Part shown: positions 4,022-54,324 of the stretch, one piece after another | Layout: each line of letters starts with the position of its first letter | Numbering within the stretch: the stretch's first letter is position 1 | Source of the DNA: Candidatus Zambryskibacteria bacterium RIFOXYD1_FULL_40_13 | GTDB lineage: Bacteria; Patescibacteriota; Minisyncoccia; Phycocordibacterales; DATDWN01 | Length of the DNA stretch: 59,065 nt | Direction of reading: 5' to 3' | Assembly (NCBI GenBank): GCA_001824295.1 | Contig: MHWY01000003.1 | Span: forward strand, 1 to 59,065 | The notes under the pieces: generated by a model | What the model saw: the letters and a program-made list of their open reading frames with translations, nothing else | Database searches by the model: none | Told to the model about the DNA's origin: nothing | Position numbers and translations under genes: made by a program

Positions 4022-4094
4022 GCGCGATTAGCTCAGTTGGTAGAGCGACTCATTGACGTTGAGTAGGCCACAGGTTCGAGTCCTGTATCGCGCA
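4022..4094 (+). tRNA. tRNA-Val(GAC)
   Basis: GCGCGAT...ATCGCGCA; anticodon arm ACTCA-TTGACGT-TGAGT; GTTCGAG. Confidence 0.95.
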
Positions 4095-4232
4095 CAAAGA
4101 CGAAGTCTTGTGCCAGGACTCGAACAGATTAGCGGTTTACGCTTGCACCAGCAAGTGTCGCTAATCTGCGTTTTTGATTTTGGTTTTTGACGAAAAATCA
4201 AAATCGAAAAAGAGACTCCTGTATCGCGCACA
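4095..4232 (+). repeat. tRNA-trailing structured element, scaffold A (Val unit 1)
   Basis: Antisense T-arm caggactcgaac (4114-4125), core hairpin, GACG-loop hairpin, direct repeat of tRNA 3' end (4217-4232). Confidence 0.85.
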
Positions 4233-4395
4233 ATAAAGCCACCGTAAGGTGGATTTTTTGTGCGTTATAAGTAAAGTCATGTCATGACTTTACGTCAGGA
4301 TTCGAAAACCCTTGATAGTTTTTTGTGAGTCTACGAAACAAAAAACAGAAAAGGTGTACTGACCATGTAATGGTCGAGACTCCTGTATCGCGCAC
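4233..4395 (+). repeat. tRNA-trailing structured element, scaffold B (Val unit 2)
   Basis: tgtgcgttata-[hairpin 4270-4295]-caggattcgaa; core shared with the Lys element; direct repeat tcctgtatcgcgcac (4381-4395). Confidence 0.85.
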
Positions 4396-4810: not shown

Positions 4811-5734
4811 TTATTTAGCACGCAGAGTTATATAAATATCCTCAAGAGCTTTAACAGCATCACCTGAAGCGATGTTGTTTTGGTGGTATAGGCCATCTGT
4901 GCAATCCCCAGCAGCCCATATGCCGAGGATACTCGTTTGTTGAGTCCTTGGGTCTGTTGGTATTTGGCCAATTTCATTGAGCTTAATTATGTTTTTTGCA
5001 AAGTCTGTTGTTGGGATTAGTCCAATTTCTACAAAAATTCCAGATACTTTTAATCTGTCCCTTTCACCCGTTATTTTGTTTCTGTAATAAAGACCATCCA
5101 CAAATTTTCCTCCCTGTACCTCGATAATTTCTGAATTATTCAAAACCTTCATATTTGGGTGAGAGAGTACTTTTTTTACTGTAATTTCATCGGCTCTGAA
5201 TCTGTCGGAACGGTTTAGTAGAGTGACACTTTTACAATAGGCTAATAGTTGGGCAGCTGACTCAAATGCGGCATTTCCACCACCAATTACGGCAACATCT
5301 TGACCCGCGAAGAGGGGACCATCACATGATGCGCAATAGATTAGTCCTCTGTTGTCATATTCTTTCGCTCCAGGAACGTCTAATTTGCGTCTGGTAGACC
5401 CTGTGGCAATAAGTATGGTTTGTGTATGGTATTCTTCTTTTTCTGTAATTACGATTAATTTTTCACCGTCTTTTCTTATGTCTTGTACTGCTTCACCTTC
5501 TTTTATTTCTAGAGATTCGCCAGAATAAGCTAATAAGTGATTCTTAAGATTTTTTGCTAAATCATTGCCAGATATCTTGATTGTGCCAATCCAGTTTTCT
5601 ATACCTTCTGAAACTGTGCTCTGTCCCCCAAAATCTGGTGTAATTAAAAGGGTTTTAAGCTTTTTTCTAGCAGAATAAACACCGGCTGACACACCGGCCG
5701 GCCCTCCACCGATTATTATTAGTTCATAAGTCAT
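4811..5734 (-). CDS. trxB: Thioredoxin-disulfide reductase family (TrxB-like)
   Basis: GGGPAG FAD motif, CASCDG redox pair, GGGNAA NADPH motif, WAAGD. Confidence 0.85.
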   Translation of the reverse strand: MTYELIIIGGGPAGVSAGVYSARKKLKTLLITPDFGGQSTVSEGIENWIGTIKISGNDLAKNLKNHLLAYSGESLEIKEGEAVQDIRKDGEKLIVITEKEEYHTQTILIATGSTRRKLDVPGAKEYDNRGLIYCASCDGPLFAGQDVAVIGGGNAAFESAAQLLAYCKSVTLLNRSDRFRADEITVKKVLSHPNMKVLNNSEIIEVQGGKFVDGLYYRNKITGERDRLKVSGIFVEIGLIPTTDFAKNIIKLNEIGQIPTDPRTQQTSILGIWAAGDCTDGLYHQNNIASGDAVKALEDIYITLRAK

Positions 5735-17991: not shown

Positions 17992-18639
17992 TTATATGTC
18001 AAGGGGCATCCTTGACATACTCGTTTCTTTTAAATAATTTTCTGTCTCACCGACCAGTGAGTTTTTATCTCCAAATATTCCTAGCAGTAAATCTGTAGTG
18101 ACTATTTGTAGACCTCTTTCTTCACTGTAGTCTTTAAAACTACTCCACTTATATTGGCCCGGGTGTTTTACTAGTCCATCTTTTACTGGGTTCATGTGTA
18201 TGTATGCCGAGGCCCACATTAGTTGTGCGTCATCTTCTATTTGCACGGCCTTAAACTGATCTTGAAAGACATGGCCCACCCTTTTGTGTTTTTTGTTTAC
18301 AAACATGGCGTAACTCGTGCAAACCTTTGATAACATTTTTGAAATTGATGTGTTGTTTGTTTGTTCAACTAGTAGATGAAAATGGTTTGGCATTAGGCAA
18401 AAAGCATGAAGTTTGTAGTCACTTTTATTTGTATCCGTAATTCTTATTCTTGAGTAGGGAAGTGAAAGTAAATTATCTTTCTGAATTTCTTTTTCATCAA
18501 ATCCAAGACTTAGGCCAAGTCTAAAAAGAAACGCTCGATAATCTTGCTCGTCAAAGAATATTTTTTCTTTATTGTTTCCACGGTTGTAAATATGAACTAT
18601 TGTGCCGGGACCAAATTCCTTGAAGTCTCTATTTTTCAT
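17992..18639 (-). mobile_element. HUH Y1 transposase, REP-associated (RAYT/TnpA-REP-like)
   Basis: HIYNRGNNKEKIF...DY..F, CLMPNHFHLL (HUH), GHVFQDQFK, YIHMNP (catalytic Tyr), YKWSS. Confidence 0.88.
17997..18017. repeat. REP hairpin at the RAYT 3' end
   Basis: tgtcaaggggcatccttgaca; exact reverse complement of 18650-18670. Confidence 0.85.
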
Positions 18640-18649
18640 TCTTATATTA

Positions 18650-18670
18650 TGTCAAGGATGCCCCTTGACA
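18650..18670. repeat. REP hairpin upstream of the RAYT
   Basis: tgtcaaggatgccccttgaca. Confidence 0.85.
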
Positions 18671-23465: not shown

Positions 23466-23502
23466 AAAACCCGCGCACCTCTCGATGAGTGTGCGCGGTT
23501 TT
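23466..23502. terminator. Bidirectional terminator
   Basis: aaaacccgcgcac...gtgcgcggtttt between convergent genes. Confidence 0.7.
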
Positions 23503-23520
23503 GCCTTTACGGCGAACGAA

Positions 23521-24252
23521 CTACTTCCCGACCGTGACCTTGACGGTCACTGGCCAGGAGACTCTAGATTGGAATTCGCCCCAGTCCATCCAGGGCAAGT
23601 TGCTATTAGTTTCTTTCCCAGGGCCGTCCTTGTACGGCTTTCCCCTGTGGTCCCAGATAGTGATGAGCCCTTCTGGCTCAATCATGCTACCTTTGGTGAG
23701 GTCTACCCGACAGCTCGGGCGTCCGACTGGGGCCGTGACGGTGTATGTCCCGTCGGCGTTCTGCTCACACCATTTGACGGCGCGTGTGGCCGACTCTGGC
23801 GACCAGAAGTTCTTCCAGGCCGCCCCGACATGTCCGGGGATTTCCACGAGGTTGACGCCCTTGGCGAGCACCGTCCTCCCCACCATGAACCCGAGGCCCA
23901 CGATGAGGATGGTCAGCATGACCCGCCCCAAGAAGTTCATCTTCTTCTCACCCTTCTTGCCGTCTTCCCTGTAGAACAGGAAGGCGACGGCGATGAGAGG
24001 GTGAGCGAGAAGTGACCACTTGGTGAAGAAGAGTGCCTTCCACACTTCTGGCCAGAAGCACCAGAAGGTGAAGTGACACAGAGCCACCCCGGCGAGTGGC
24101 TTGAGCCACCTACCGCTTTTGGACAAGTCGGGGAGGCGTAGCTGTCCCGTTGCCGAGCGAACCCGCGACGGCAGGGAGCTTTTCCCCACAATCACGAGGA
24201 CTATGATGGCCACAAGGATGGCCACATAGTTTTCGTTCCAAAACTCAATCAT
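23521..24252 (-). CDS. Hypothetical membrane protein (GC-rich)
   Basis: Several TMs, GGAGG SD, overlaps the SPFH gene end. Confidence 0.7.
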   Translation of the reverse strand: MIEFWNENYVAILVAIIVLVIVGKSSLPSRVRSATGQLRLPDLSKSGRWLKPLAGVALCHFTFWCFWPEVWKALFFTKWSLLAHPLIAVAFLFYREDGKKGEKKMNFLGRVMLTILIVGLGFMVGRTVLAKGVNLVEIPGHVGAAWKNFWSPESATRAVKWCEQNADGTYTVTAPVGRPSCRVDLTKGSMIEPEGLITIWDHRGKPYKDGPGKETNSNLPWMDWGEFQSRVSWPVTVKVTVGK

Positions 24253-25327
24253 GCGACCCTCCCTTCTGGTTCATGGCCGTCTTGAATGCGTCGACTAGGC
24301 TTTGGATAAGGCTGCCCCCCGCGAGGAACGTGTTGTGCCCACCCTTCAAGGCGTCGACAAGTGTTTGGAGCTGAAGGGCGTCCATGCCGTTCTTTTTCTC
24401 CATGACGAGGCGAATGACCTCCGTGCCTTCTGCCTGTTTCGTAAGCTGGGCAAGCAGGCCGTCAGCTTCTGCTAGAAGCAGGGCCTTCTTGGCTTTGGCC
24501 TCACCAACGCCGTGAGCAGTCAACTCGTATTTCTTGGCATCCGCTGCTGTTTTAGTTGCGCTGGCTTCTTGGGTCGCAGCGTGTGCCTTGGTCACTGATT
24601 CGTTGAGGGTGTGGCTAAAGATGATGGGCTTGATCTCAGCTACACTGATCCTGATGCCCCAGTCCACCACATTGTCAGCAAACACCTTTAGTAATGCTGC
24701 ATTGTGTGTCCCGAGGTCTCTGTTCACTGCGGCCGGCGACTTCACTGTGAACTCCCTGTTGAACAGGGCAATCGCCACGTCCTCCAGGTTTTTCAGGGTT
24801 CTCTCGACCGTTCCCATCTTCTGAAGCCAACGGCACGGGTCGCTGATTTCAAAACTCACGAAGATTGGCACTTCTGCCACGATTCGCGAGTTGTACGGGT
24901 CGTCCTTCGGCAAGTTTTCATCCGCTGGTCCGAACAAGATTCGGATTGGCGGTTTCATGTCAGACCCAACTGGGGGTGGAGCGTACTTGTCATCTTTGGT
25001 ACCGCGCCAGATTTTGTCTGGCTCTGCTGGCAGTTCTGCTTGAACTATCCGTCCTTCCACGGTTTTGAGCTTGATGAGACCGAGTGGTGCGAGCACTGGT
25101 CCCGGCCCAACGTTTGCATATGGGTATCCGAGAAACAGCAAGGCGCCTTTCTGGTCATGCTCGACTTTGTCGATGCTTGCCCAGATGTAGTACCCCCCTC
25201 CGATGAGGGAGAGGAGTCCGAGGCCCTTGATGCCGTAGGTGGCCCCGAGGGTCGTTCCAACAAACATCAGGACTCCGAGAACGATCGCGAAGCAGGTGAT
25301 TCCAACCAGGTCGATATTCTTCATCAT
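24245..25327 (-). CDS. SPFH/band-7 (prohibitin/HflC-like) membrane protein
   Basis: N-terminal TMs, 'V...Q.GALLFLG......GPG', 'WGIRISVAEIK.I', Ala-rich coiled coil; TTGACT-17-TAGAAT promoter (25436-25464). Confidence 0.7.
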   Translation of the reverse strand: MMKNIDLVGITCFAIVLGVLMFVGTTLGATYGIKGLGLLSLIGGGYYIWASIDKVEHDQKGALLFLGYPYANVGPGPVLAPLGLIKLKTVEGRIVQAELPAEPDKIWRGTKDDKYAPPPVGSDMKPPIRILFGPADENLPKDDPYNSRIVAEVPIFVSFEISDPCRWLQKMGTVERTLKNLEDVAIALFNREFTVKSPAAVNRDLGTHNAALLKVFADNVVDWGIRISVAEIKPIIFSHTLNESVTKAHAATQEASATKTAADAKKYELTAHGVGEAKAKKALLLAEADGLLAQLTKQAEGTEVIRLVMEKKNGMDALQLQTLVDALKGGHNTFLAGGSLIQSLVDAFKTAMNQKGGSHD

Positions 25328-25544
25328 GGTTTCTCTCCTAAGTCGTGTTTCCAATCTAGATGTCAACGAACTCTTCCAGGAACTTCCTGGAAACCTCTCG
25401 GGAAATTCCCGTGAGTATCCGTTGTCTCTGTATATATTCTATCACAAAACACACAGAAAGTCAATGTTTATGTGCTACGAAACATGGCCTAAATAAAGGA
25501 TATTTTTTGAGCAAAAATAGCCCGGCCGACTCGAGTCGGCGGGG

Positions 25545-25829
25545 CTATCTGTGACGAAGGGTGAACTTCAGCCCGTGGTCGTTTGCGTTGTAGTACGCTT
25601 CGACCACCCAGCCGTGGTAGATGCTCTCAAGCTCTACCATCTGTGCGAAATTAACCCTAGCACCTCTACGGCACTTCTCTGGCCCGTTCATACTGACAAA
25701 TGTCGGGCCCGTGTACCTCTGGTCGCGAGCAAGTAGGGCTTTGTCGATGATGTCCAGAAGCCCAGTTACCCGTGTGGTGTCAGCGGAAACCTTCCGCTCA
25801 AGCACCGCAGATTGGGCTCTTGTGTGCAT
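25545..25829 (-). CDS. Hypothetical protein (orphan cassette)
   Basis: GAGGTG SD; terminator hairpin ~25515-25548. Confidence 0.5.
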   Translation of the reverse strand: MHTRAQSAVLERKVSADTTRVTGLLDIIDKALLARDQRYTGPTFVSMNGPEKCRRGARVNFAQMVELESIYHGWVVEAYYNANDHGLKFTLRHR

Positions 25830-25889
25830 CTTACACCTCACAATTTACTGTTCGCAGTTATGCTACTACAGACAGATGCTCCTGTCTAA

Positions 25890-26072
25890 TTGTGGGTAAG
25901 GAGGGGTACTCTTTTTTAATAATAAAATGTCGTCACATTTTATTATTAAAAACCCAGATTCACGACACTCGCTGGTGCGAGCGTAAACCGTGAATCTGTT
26001 CGAGCCCCTCACGCAAAGCTTCGCTTTGCTCTTACCCACAAATCAAAAAACCGCTTTCGCGGTTTAGATTTG
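25890..26072 (-). repeat. tRNA-trailing structured element, scaffold A (Leu-TAG)
   Basis: tgtgggtaag-[hairpin]-gaggggctcgaac; core homologous to Val unit 1; direct repeat at 25891-25905. Confidence 0.88.
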
Positions 26073-26154
26073 TGGGTAAGGAGGGACTCGAACCCTCAAG
26101 CCTTACGGCACTAGTTCCTAAGACTAGCGTGTCTACCAATTGCACCACTTACCC
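26073..26154 (-). tRNA. tRNA-Leu(TAG)
   Basis: GGGTAAG...CTTACCCA; CTAGT-CTTAGGA-ACTAG; long variable arm. Confidence 0.95.
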
Positions 26155-26168
26155 AAAAAATACGAAAT

Positions 26169-26316
26169 CAGTAGGGAATCGACCATTACATGGTCAGTAC
26201 ACCTTTTTGTTATTTGTTTCGCTTTGCTCACAAATAACTATCAAAGGTTTTCGATCCCTAACGCAGACTATAACATAGTCTGCTCTGGGCGTAAAAAAAT
26301 CGTAACCGATTTTTTG
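26169..26316 (-). repeat. tRNA-trailing structured element, scaffold B (Lys)
   Basis: cgcccag-[hairpin]-tagggatcgaa; core closely similar to Val unit 2; short repeat ccctactg. Confidence 0.85.
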
Positions 26317-26389
26317 TGCGCCCAGTAGGGATCGAACCTACGACCTTATCCTTAAGAGGGATCTGCTCTACCAGCTGAGCTATGGGCGC
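26317..26389 (-). tRNA. tRNA-Lys(CTT)
   Basis: GCGCCCA...TGGGCGCA; ATCC-CTCTTAA-GGAT. Confidence 0.93.
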
Positions 26390-26544
26390 ATATATGAAAA
26401 AGTACTTTGGTACTATACCACAAACCTTTGTATAAAATAAAGACATAGTAAAAAAATATAATTAATTATGAAAAAGAATACTCCTCCTTGCCCACAAATT
26501 GACAAAGTAACTATATTCTGCTATGATTTGGATAGGAGGCCACG

Positions 26545-26757
26545 ATGCCCGACCCGTTTCTTGTTTTAGCTGCATCTTTCGCAAGCAGTGCCGTCCCGCA
26601 GGCTGATGCGGACGATTCAATGGCCGGGGCGACATCTATCCCCTCGGAGGTCACTGTTGCTCGCCGTCGTGCCGAGCAAGTGACATTTGTCCAAAGTGGA
26701 AGACGAAAAGACTGGTACTGGCTACTGCCAGATGGTACAAAAGTCTTCCATCAGTAA
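26545..26757 (+). CDS. Small hypothetical protein (orphan cassette)
   Basis: TTGACA-17-TATGAT (26499-26527), AGGAGG SD, hairpin after the stop. Confidence 0.6.
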   Translation: MPDPFLVLAASFASSAVPQADADDSMAGATSIPSEVTVARRRAEQVTFVQSGRRKDWYWLLPDGTKVFHQ

Positions 26758-26884
26758 GACACGCCGCCCGCTAGTGAGAACGCCTTGTCGTTTCTCACGG
26801 CGAGGCGGTTTCTCATTTTAAAACCTTGTAGTCAATTTGTTTATATAAAAAAGAGTGGGCGAACTCGAGTCCGCCCACCAATCC

Positions 26885-27040
26885 CTACTGAAGTAAGGTG
26901 CGCAACGTTTCCGTTCGCACCTTGAGCAACGGCTCAAGACTTTCTCTCATCTCTTTCCTGTACGCTCCACCCTTGCGGAGGAGTTGCCAGAATCGTTCTG
27001 GCGTGAGTGTCAGCCGTTGTGTCGTTTTAGCATCTTTCAT
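26885..27040 (-). CDS. 51-aa microprotein MKDAKTTQRL... (not in ORF track)
   Basis: AAGGAG SD; terminator gtgggcg...cgcccac plus T-tract at ~26846-26880. Confidence 0.55.
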   Translation of the reverse strand: MKDAKTTQRLTLTPERFWQLLRKGGAYRKEMRESLEPLLKVRTETLRTLLQ

Positions 27041-27109
27041 CACTAGCTCCTTCCATTAATAATAATACACAAAATATTTGATACTACCAATTTTCAAAAC
27101 AATGTGGGG

Positions 27110-27288
27110 TGGTGCCCGAGGTGGGAATCTTCCGCAACTAAAAATTTTTCGTCAAAAATTTTTGTCGTGTCCGCAGCTCGCGACCCGCGCTGTTGCACGG
27201 GTACCCCGCTTCGCTTTTCGATTCCCAACATAAAGCAATAACATTGCTTTATTCCTCGGACACACAAAACTACCGCATGGTAGTTTTT
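27110..27288 (-). repeat. tRNA-trailing structured element, scaffold C (Leu-TAA)
   Basis: gtgtccgagg-[hairpin]-tgggaatcgaa; GACG hairpin; 20-bp direct repeat including CCA (27110-27129). Confidence 0.85.
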
Positions 27289-27375
27289 TGGTGCCCGAGG
27301 TGGGAATCGAACCCACATGACCTTGCGGTCACAAAATTTTAAGTCTTGCGTGTATACCAATTCCACCACTCGGGC
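27289..27375 (-). tRNA. tRNA-Leu(TAA), CCA encoded
   Basis: GCCCGAG...CTCGGGCACCA; CAAGA-CTTAAAA-TTTTG. Confidence 0.94.
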
Positions 27376-54151: not shown

Positions 54152-54324
54152 CAAAGCAGAGCGAAGCGAAAGCTTTGCTGGGAGAAGCAAATTGAAAATT
54201 TGCGTCAGGGAATCGAACGGATTCGCGGTCTACTGACCGAGTACGGTCTGTCGCGAATCCGCGTTTTCACTTTTGATAAGTGTCGACGAATCAAAAGTGA
54301 AAAAGATTACCCCTGTCTCCCAGC
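54152..54324 (+). repeat. tRNA-trailing structured element, scaffold A (Gln)
   Basis: gctgggaga-[hairpin 54186-54205]-cagggaatcgaac; core; direct repeat at 54311-54324. Confidence 0.88.

Follow-up and report, generated by a model that had tools for sequence, protein, structure and literature searches.

Structured non-coding elements behind tRNA genes of Patescibacteria: arms matched to the neighbouring tRNA, exchangeable scaffolds and a tentative case for homing

The stretch analysed here (the window) is contig 3, 59,065 nt long, of the ten-contig genome of Candidatus Zambryskibacteria bacterium RIFOXYD1_FULL_40_13 (728,731 bases, 95.66% complete, 35 tRNA genes by ARAGORN), and our subject is a short element that lies in it directly behind a tRNA-Lys gene. 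Ten tRNA genes were predicted by ARAGORN inside the window, and a search of its whole length against Rfam at the gathering score returned tRNAs only. On the minus strand, tRNA-Lys(ctt) (26316..26389; ARAGORN; Rfam tRNA, 68.5 bits) is followed by the Lys element (26169..26315) and, 14 nt further downstream, by tRNA-Leu(tag) (26072..26154; ARAGORN), in agreement with the preliminary description of this locus, which had placed the element inside a Lys-Leu tRNA tandem. In this direction, the span 26169-26316 begins with the final base of tRNA-Lys(ctt) (26316) and closes with the end of a terminal repeat (26169), and no open reading frame (ORF) was found inside these 148 nt.

Read in tRNA sense, the Lys element opens with a hairpin made of an A-tract and a T-tract (aaaaaatcg gtta cgatttttt, 26293..26315, from sequence and fold), which together with the left arm prolongs the inverted repeat of the tRNA-Lys 3' end. 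This first hairpin is A/T-rich, and no terminator was called at the 3' side of tRNA-Lys. The left arm (cgcccag, 26285..26291) is antisense to the acceptor 3' strand (tRNA-Lys positions 65-71), and the right arm (tagggatcgaa, 26250..26260) is the exact reverse complement of the T-loop and T-stem 3' strand (positions 54-64). Between the arms, a predicted hairpin, hp1 (26261..26284), stands opposite the T-stem/acceptor-stem boundary of the target; it is identical in the relative L157 and contains a promoter-like TTTACG-17-TATAGT (TG-n-TATAGT). The core of what we call scaffold B (26181..26249) is defined by folds, covariation and a shared 29-mer, and consists of a helix P2 (aaccttt/aaaggt) around a hairpin hp2, the linker gtac and a hairpin hp3 with the loop tgtaa. 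At the end stands the terminal repeat, T' (cgattccctactg, 26169..26181), a sense copy of tRNA-Lys positions ~56-67 with one inserted t; arms and terminal repeat together match the part of the tRNA at positions ~54-73. With 13 nt this T' is partial, the final 6-7 bases of the tRNA end being absent, and it was therefore missed by a search for 14-nt repeats; it is complete in the relatives L152 and L154. The Lys element is best read as a slightly eroded copy from a large family of non-coding structured insertion modules.

Members of this family are 130-190 nt long, non-coding and placed immediately 3' of a tRNA gene, and their parts follow in the order A/T-flanked hairpin, left arm, hp1, right arm, scaffold and T'. 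The left arm complements the acceptor 3' strand with the discriminator, often the trailer too, and the right arm complements the T-stem 3' strand and the T-loop, both arms together forming a split antisense of tRNA positions ~54-73 plus trailer, with hp1 always opposite the T-stem/acceptor-stem boundary. At this junction, no target base is left unpaired in the Lys and Leu(tag) elements and three are in the second of two elements behind tRNA-Val(gac) (Val-2). That the arms are true antisense and not copies of the tRNA 5' half can be seen from their G.U pairs, from the pairing of discriminator and trailer, and from the Gln(ttg) arm, a perfect complement where the tRNA's own T-stem has wobbles. 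T', the terminal part of the element, is a sense copy of tRNA positions ~56-73 interrupted after the T-loop GA(G/T) by an insertion of 1-3 nt (AC in both Val copies, TAC in Leu(tag) and Gln(ttg), AT in Ala, T in Lys), which reaches ~14 nt in copies from Parcubacteria. As to the first hairpin, elements at the end of a tRNA cluster have a GC-rich terminator there, and those with a further tRNA after them have an A/T-only hairpin. An ORF opposite the scaffolds, open in some copies, is closed in the Leu(tag) element and was therefore rejected as coding.

The sharing of scaffold B between different tRNAs is seen within the window itself. Behind tRNA-Val(gac) (4022..4095, plus strand; ARAGORN, Rfam) stand two elements in tandem on the same strand, each with a perfect T': Val-1, with scaffold A (4096..4231; profile search E 3.1e-39; T' tcctgtatcgcgcac, 15/15), and Val-2, with scaffold B (4232..4395; E 1.8e-41). 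Val-2 is made of a terminator (4232-4259), left arm (~4259-4264), hp1 (4265-4295), right arm (4296-4306), core (4307-4375) and a complete T' (4375-4395, 15/15). The close match between the Lys and Val-2 cores, first pointed out in the preliminary description, is borne out: a 29-mer is exactly shared between 26179-26207 (minus) and 4349-4377 (plus), occurs nowhere else in the window and was matched in none of 100 dinucleotide-preserving shuffles, and the cores are 87% identical over 85 nt (BLAST; 4293-4377 on the Val-2 side). That arms and terminal repeat would fit Lys in one element and Val in the other is correct for the arms, those of Val-2 (tgtgcg and caggattcgaa) pairing with tRNA-Val, G.U pairs included, and only in part for the terminal repeat, given the truncated copy in Lys. 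Co-transcription of the element with the Lys-Leu pair, also proposed there, is plausible in view of the 14-nt gap to tRNA-Leu and of terminator-like sites, one of which is present after tRNA-Leu(tag) and none after tRNA-Lys(ctt).

In the whole genome, nhmmer searches with three scaffold profiles recovered 16 strong copies (E <= 1.4e-12), namely four with scaffold B, seven with scaffold A and five with scaffold C, and a fourth scaffold type was found behind tRNA-Gln(ctg) and a tRNA-Met. The remaining copies in the window are a scaffold-A element of tRNA-Leu(tag) (25890..26071, minus; E 4.8e-48), with a GC-rich terminator, arms, hp1 and T' (gagtacccctccttacccacaa), a scaffold-C element of tRNA-Leu(taa) (27110..27288, minus; T' 15/15, E 2.1e-52) and a scaffold-A element of tRNA-Gln(ttg) (54153..54324, plus; E 4.5e-46). 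T' copies stand behind Val (twice), Leu(tag), Leu(taa), Gln(ttg), Ala, Ser(cga) and others, that of Lys being partial. Twelve of the 16 strong copies lie directly behind a tRNA gene, one of which holds a group I intron. This intron-split tRNA (L001 16354-16990), missed by ARAGORN, carries the intron in the anticodon loop (Rfam 81.5 bits) with an HNH-like ORF; behind it come a scaffold-A element, then a 4.2-kb block, then another element for this tRNA (L002 5320-5560).

To see how arms and T' relate to the adjacent tRNA, as the preliminary description had proposed to tabulate, we compared own with swapped tRNAs in 38 tRNA-linked loci of other genomes that span at least 15 amino-acid identities. 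The arms track the tRNA: they score 11.5 with their own tRNA against 7.3 (sd 1.7) with swapped ones, and T' scores 9.7 against 5.1 (sd 1.3; 1360 swapped pairs). In one metagenome-assembled genome (MAG), near-identical B scaffolds stand behind tRNA-Arg(gcg), Lys(ttt) and Lys(ctt), their arms differing at tRNA-specific bases. The same is seen between alleles at tRNA-Lys(ctt), where arm changes accompany changes of the tRNA in L153 and L157, and where in L154 the arms follow the tRNA and T' keeps another allele. The scaffold itself does not appear to follow the tRNA. A tree was built from 40 cores, limited to those for which ARAGORN predicts a tRNA 60-200 nt upstream. On this tree, whose columns are few and whose support is weak, tRNA identity switches 31 times (mean with shuffled labels, 30.4), and 227 of 300 shuffles give as few changes or fewer, which suggests that scaffold lineage is uncoupled from tRNA identity. 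The arms also pair better with the real tRNA than with T' in 34 of 39 elements (-20.3 versus -12.6 kcal/mol), as expected for a guide that prefers its target, with the reservation that the elements had been selected for a right arm that fits the tRNA.

In this genus, the tRNA genes Cys-Leu(taa)-Lys(ctt)-Leu(tag) form a conserved cluster, in which the site behind tRNA-Lys(ctt) can be compared in 22 loci. Read by eye, as were all our class assignments of scaffold types at this site, five loci have a scaffold B, two an A, one a C, ten a "GACGGAG" type, two are unclear and two have nothing. In the latter (L162 and L173), tRNA-Leu follows 18-20 nt further on. The first hairpin is A/T-rich in seven loci with a B, A or C element (L151, L152, L153, L154, L157, L158 and L161), in five of which tRNA-Leu(tag) comes next on the same strand. 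Moreover, our genome (scaffold B) and L157 (scaffold A) have an identical 40-nt block of left arm, hp1 and right arm at this site, which indicates that the scaffold was exchanged at the TCGAA junction. Tandem arrays are found behind tRNA-Val (A then B) and in L104. On the sequences compared, this pattern fits elements that insert and recombine as modules.

These observations also bear on the claim that arms are rewritten faster than the core diverges and that the Lys/Val pair is direct evidence of retargeting. One scaffold does serve different tRNAs with matched arms and repeats; a rewriting of the arms is not established by it, as the block of arms and hp1 common to a scaffold-B and a scaffold-A locus means that scaffold exchange, or else gene conversion, accounts for the sharing equally well. 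Module exchange in both directions, with new arms or with a new scaffold, is what the sequences record, and retargeting is in this sense partly supported.

All evidence on structure is computational. Every minimum-free-energy fold pairs both arms with T' in a long hairpin that encloses the scaffold, the T' insertion forming a bulge in the arm/T' stem. In 35 of 39 elements, the tRNA-sense strand gives the more stable fold of the two strands (mean -65.6 versus -61.3 kcal/mol, Wilcoxon p 6.7e-6). For covariation, 91 cores were aligned, 19 motif columns being invariant by construction; at the free core positions, 90.4% of cells are paired against 75.6% in shuffles, and changes on both sides of a pair occur in 153 cells against 55.8 in shuffles, a value reached in none of 500, with slid controls far lower. 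Over the ten consensus pairs of the 91 sequences, 26 G.U cells stand against one A.C cell. The model of scaffold B is P2-hp2-GUAC-hp3 with the loop UGUAA, in which GUAC and the loop are conserved unpaired bases, and tandem G.A motifs were recognised by eye at the P2/hp2 junction and in many hp2 loops. Strand-asymmetric folding, covariation and the excess of G.U pairs point, within the limits of such models, to an RNA of tRNA-sense polarity as the active form, the corresponding DNA strand being the alternative.

Beyond this genome, a 19-nt scaffold-B core motif was found in 30 of 41 related genomes (24/24 of the same genus, 6/16 from other families of the order), and the reversed control pattern in none. 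A scan of species-representative genomes gave at least 120 stretches with the motif, related genomes not being independent samples; among the matches listed, these are mostly from MAGs of Saccharibacteria and Parcubacteria/Paceibacterota, with a few obvious chance matches in other phyla. The 139 distinct instances among the matches listed were assigned by eye to 46 of the tRNA type (B), 48 stand-alone cores ("type 2", with the layout GGTGAG-hp1-CGCAAGACC-core) and 45 others, which include chance matches and a form after the rplK stop codon built as X, reverse complement of X, core and X' (L063, L115 and L142). The core is thus not tied to tRNAs exclusively, 48 of the 139 instances standing alone. 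For 30 of the 44 B-type instances outside our genome, ARAGORN places the end of a same-strand tRNA 60-300 nt upstream, and the remaining 14 lie mostly behind intron-containing or unrecognised tRNAs or at locus ends. Type-2 cores have no orientation bias toward ORFs (upstream 20 versus 19, downstream 28 versus 27, n = 45) and occur as insertions within a pseudo-tRNA-Ile, a partial copy of 5S rRNA and other scaffolds. The pseudo-tRNA-Ile lies in the 16S-tRNA-Ile spacer (contig 4, 66700-67000; L012 3700-4000) and is split by a pair of such cores, an antisense one in the anticodon loop and a sense one before the T-arm. At contig 4, 45820-46200, a partial copy of the 5S rRNA 5' half stands beside the real gene, with a stand-alone core inserted antisense.

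As an explanation, we tentatively prefer, at a confidence somewhat short of even, that these are non-autonomous mobile modules which use nucleic-acid complementarity to home to tRNA 3' ends. The arms would serve as a built-in guide to the 3' end of the target tRNA, and T' would be the element's own copy of the joining or cleavage site, held by the arms in the long bulged hairpin until a better-matching target tRNA displaces it. The module would be active as a single strand in tRNA-sense polarity, most likely as RNA transcribed together with the tRNA, or alternatively as single-stranded DNA. Guide and scaffold modules would recombine freely at the TCGAA junction, which derives from the T-loop, and Lys and Val would share scaffold B because of this recombination and not only because arms change. 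A more far-reaching version seems rather unlikely, namely a programmable homing without a protein gene of its own, in which RNA or single-stranded DNA elements of ~150 nt pick tRNA 3' ends through a split guide of 17-22 nt, carry the donor copy with them, swap modules and use an enzyme of Patescibacteria that is probably host-wide; they would then stand as a new class of mobile element guided by nucleic acid.

Several points weigh against homing by complementarity. The first concerns the arms, whose complementarity could be kept passively, by template switching within the inverted repeat of tRNA and arms, without any guide function. In L158, arms and T' fit a tRNA-Lys allele other than the resident one, and the weak support of the core tree and the selection of elements by their right arm, both mentioned above, belong here as well. 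The terminator-like hairpin ahead of the arms in most copies argues against efficient co-transcription. No free or circular form of the element was found in support of the model, and in viral contigs the 17 stretches with the motif, read by eye, all lie outside a P2/hp2 context and are apparently chance matches in coding sequence.

In addition, no candidate for a partner protein survived testing. The IS110 recombinase family PF01548 has no match in our genome, with control genomes positive, and TnpB, Cas1 and rve integrases were not found in this 95.66%-complete assembly. A stand-alone reverse transcriptase was rejected as a partner, being present in one of 41 genomes (E <= 1e-20). The gene in question, of group-II-like type and 447 aa (L150; contig 2, 52757-54097), is in our own genome and was not found in the 40 relatives; the other reverse transcriptase belongs to a diversity-generating retroelement with bAvd (L149, end of contig 1). 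RAYT-like genes of the HUH (Y1) type do not keep company with the elements either: 12 Y1 genes had no A, B or C scaffold up to a distance of 1.5 kb, and Y1 genes are present in 16 of 30 motif-positive versus 5 of 11 motif-negative genomes. Four small GIY-YIG paralogues (87-97 aa; e.g., L005 3602-3865 and contig 5, 34512-34805) were noted, two of them immediately upstream of the element-bearing tRNA-Ala(tgc) and tRNA-Gln(ctg); as partners they were dropped, none having been seen in the other loci examined, where flanks are short. No convincing dif-like site was found, and a resemblance to ATGTAA was likewise dropped. Two conserved ORF ends of ~45 aa ("CGDD...FAQK.Y") point away from elements (L003 1860-1996, plus; L004 ~5000-5191, plus) and have no Pfam match; the C-termini of the serine recombinases are unrelated to them.

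Among the other explanations, the elements could be relics or mini-versions of integrase islands, in which the tRNA end and T' would be attL and attR and arms and scaffold the P-arm of attP, with the cargo mostly deleted. As in tRNA-integrating islands, the identity of tRNA and T' extends from the T-stem 3' strand to the tRNA end, and two elements stand at the far end of inserted DNA (C5 1714-1858, at a distance of 1.3 kb from tRNA-Ser(act), and C9 31875-32016, whose T' is that of tRNA-Ser(gga)). The 4.2-kb block between two elements of one tRNA, mentioned above, would be in line with this as well; it lies on contig C7 and encodes an HTH protein, an unknown protein of 516 aa, a DUF4238 protein and others. 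Three large serine recombinase genes (L014 105-1724, plus; L015 1811-3412, minus; L016 3377-4180, minus) also overlap, with their own 3' ends, those of tRNA-Thr(tgt), tmRNA and tRNA-Ser(gga). However, the Ser-linked insertions have inverted repeats of their own (~20 nt, terminal, of the gatgtcc..aagttagaacc type) and lie between the CCA end of the tRNA on one side and, on the other, a conserved gtcaccgcag with an older scaffold element behind it, which makes them separate elements beside a pre-existing one; a 1.3-kb remnant of an insertion was also observed behind tRNA-Ser(act) (L003). Moreover, 30 of the 44 B-type copies stand 60-300 nt behind the tRNA, with no room for cargo, no second repeat (T'') bounding genes was found downstream of T', and the genome has a single tyrosine recombinase gene (PF00589). 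Conserved unpaired motifs, the G.U asymmetry and at least five scaffolds, interchangeable and conserved between phyla, would not be expected of duplex att arms either, and we regard this origin as improbable.

Just as improbable, in our estimate, is that we are dealing with a host-serving, or at any rate cis-acting, RNA module of tRNA transcripts, whose trailer, folded back on the tRNA 3' strand or on T', would direct 3' processing, termination or insulation or protect the spacer RNA, and which would have spread between tRNAs by duplication. This would account for the constant position on the tRNA strand directly at the 3' end, for the fit of hairpin strength to operon position (A/T-only at Lys-Leu in seven species, GC-rich behind terminal tRNAs), for the RNA-like structure with tandem G.A motifs (by eye), and for the way in which arms and T' form a stack like that of acceptor and T-stem, with a bulge where the T-loop would start. 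On the other hand, only about one third of the tRNAs are followed by an element, and sister species have none, or one of another type, behind the tRNA in question, so that the element is dispensable. Stand-alone cores in both orientations to neighbouring ORFs, and antisense in the pseudo-tRNA and the 5S fragment of rRNA operons, are also difficult to reconcile with such a role.

Still less probable is a mobilisation in trans of REPIN- or PATE-like single-stranded DNA elements by RAYT-like Y1 transposases, with X as the left and T' as the right cleavage site and with arms that would enlarge on the IS200/IS605 principle of a guide paired to its cleavage site. The elements are indeed small, hairpin-rich, non-coding and multi-copy, with strand-specific structure and arms able to pair with both X and T', and the genome has two RAYT-like genes (PF01797 matches, HUH and Tyr motifs present), whose best NCBIfam match is the REP-associated tyrosine transposase (72.2 bits, below the cut-off of 80). 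The one in the window (17992-18639, minus; RAYT/IS200-like, 215 aa, motifs HFH and YIHMNP) is, however, flanked by different hairpins of its own (GTCAAGG-N5-CCTTGAC, 17998-18016 and 18651-18669, with mutually reverse-complementary loops), as is its paralogue on contig 2 (L203; TACAAGG-N5-CCTTGTA). The lack of scaffold linkage and of co-occurrence across the 41 genomes tells in the same direction, and three genomes (G007, G008 and G018) have nine core copies each and no Y1 match. Finally, a snoRNA-like guide, acting in trans or in cis, by which a protein such as a modification enzyme or nuclease would reach the T-arm and acceptor 3' strand, with T' as an intramolecular competitor that holds the guide closed, would explain the better fit of the arms to the tRNA than to T', the split guide around a hairpin, which forms a three-way junction on a continuous target strand, and the k-turn-like tandem G.A motifs read by eye at the P2/hp2 junction and in hp2 loops, but it is equally doubtful, considering the inconsistent number of unpaired bases at the junction, the need to open a folded mature tRNA, scaffold classes too different for one partner and the failure to find a candidate protein.

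Homing by complementarity has parallels in known systems, among them the IS110/IS1111 bridge (seek) RNAs, with exchangeable target-matching segments on a conserved scaffold, guide halves split by a hairpin, and target-like and donor-like sequence in one molecule. In bridge RNAs, the guide halves belong to two internal loops and recognise opposite strands of target and donor. The present elements differ in lying outside any insertion sequence, in a genome with no IS110/DEDD recombinase, and in arms that are antisense to the same tRNA-sense strand, contiguous on it and able to pair with the element's own T'. With IS200/IS605 and REPIN-RAYT systems they have in common small non-autonomous hairpin elements and base pairing with an internal segment, RAYT-like genes being present too; the guides of IS200/IS605 have ~4 nt versus 17-22 tRNA-specific nt here, and in contrast to REPIN-RAYT there is no linkage or co-occurrence with Y1 genes, and the scaffolds carry RNA-like motifs. 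The attP of CTX phage and the attC of integrons have the arrangement of target copy, (cargo), inverted copy, spacer and direct copy in common with these elements, as well as a stem which mimics the target duplex and has extrahelical bases (here, the 1-3-nt T' insertion). Those sites serve Xer or IntI recombinases at one fixed site, whereas the stem of our elements is tailored to more than 15 different tRNAs, a conserved structured scaffold serves as spacer and most copies are free of cargo. On the sequences analysed, the elements appear to fall short of the tested defining features of bridge RNAs and to lack the repeat-RAYT linkage of IS200/IS605-like systems, though the logic is alike; as in folded att sites, inverted copies form a stem with extrahelical bases, in a genome with one PF00589 gene and with no dif-like site recognised.

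Other likenesses are more partial. As in the attL/attR of tRNA-integrating islands, a direct repeat of the tRNA 3' end bounds the insert and the tRNA is regenerated, but the insert is 130-190 nt long without an integrase and has an antisense copy of the site and a systematic T' insertion. The primer-binding site of retroviruses and long terminal repeat elements is complementary to the region of a tRNA that the arms cover, namely the 3' acceptor strand, the T-stem 3' strand and part of the T-loop; here, the complementarity is split by a hairpin, the element stands beside the tRNA gene and no reverse transcriptase is linked. Rickettsia palindromic elements and miniature inverted-repeat transposable elements (MITEs) are likewise short, structured and repeated, and have spread through reduced genomes, RNA genes included, as has the type-2 core here; MITE termini are constant, whereas the terminal segments here are specific to each neighbouring gene. 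H/ACA and C/D guides have one or more fixed unpaired target nucleotides between the guide helices as well as box motifs. Such a fixed geometry is not seen here (0 versus 3 unpaired bases), and no boxes were recognised by eye. Hammerhead and hairpin ribozyme cores, compared by eye, did not fit. In Rfam 15, nothing relevant came up for 25850-26420 (E <= 10) or for nine related loci (E <= 1), and a full-text literature search, with supplements and subscription papers outside its scope, found no description of such elements; we rate their anatomy as new.

If the arms choose the target, the elements would be a natural sequence-retargetable system on ~150 nt with no linked protein gene, in some of the smallest bacterial genomes, with at least four or five interchangeable scaffolds, and near-identical scaffolds with different arms would amount to natural retargeting experiments. 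Even on more modest readings, they comprise several conserved structured-RNA motifs absent from Rfam, account for a large part of what lies behind the tRNA genes of Saccharibacteria and Parcubacteria, and bear on the annotation of tRNA loci, genomic islands and att sites in Patescibacteria genomes.

Two regions next to the Lys and Leu elements deserve mention. Upstream, at 26390-27110, ~900 bp separates tRNA-Leu(taa) from tRNA-Lys(ctt), which are close neighbours in relatives. It includes two small GC-rich convergent ORFs beside the scaffold-C element (26545-26757, plus; ~26880-27030, minus) and an inverted copy of a tRNA-Leu-like 3' end (actcctccttgcccacaa, ~26478-26497, plus), followed by a promoter-like site. 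A joint from 26395 to 27291, with 895 nt skipped and 12 other letters between, appears in DNA contigs of 4/4 runs; it agrees with the close spacing of tRNA-Leu(taa) and tRNA-Lys in relatives and, with only 28 letters on one side and a likeness minimum of 85, probably comes from related organisms. Downstream of the Leu(tag) element, the region 23485-25841, which has ORFs of 98, 373 and 243 aa without Pfam match, is GC-rich with long ORFs open on both strands, and is possibly foreign DNA.

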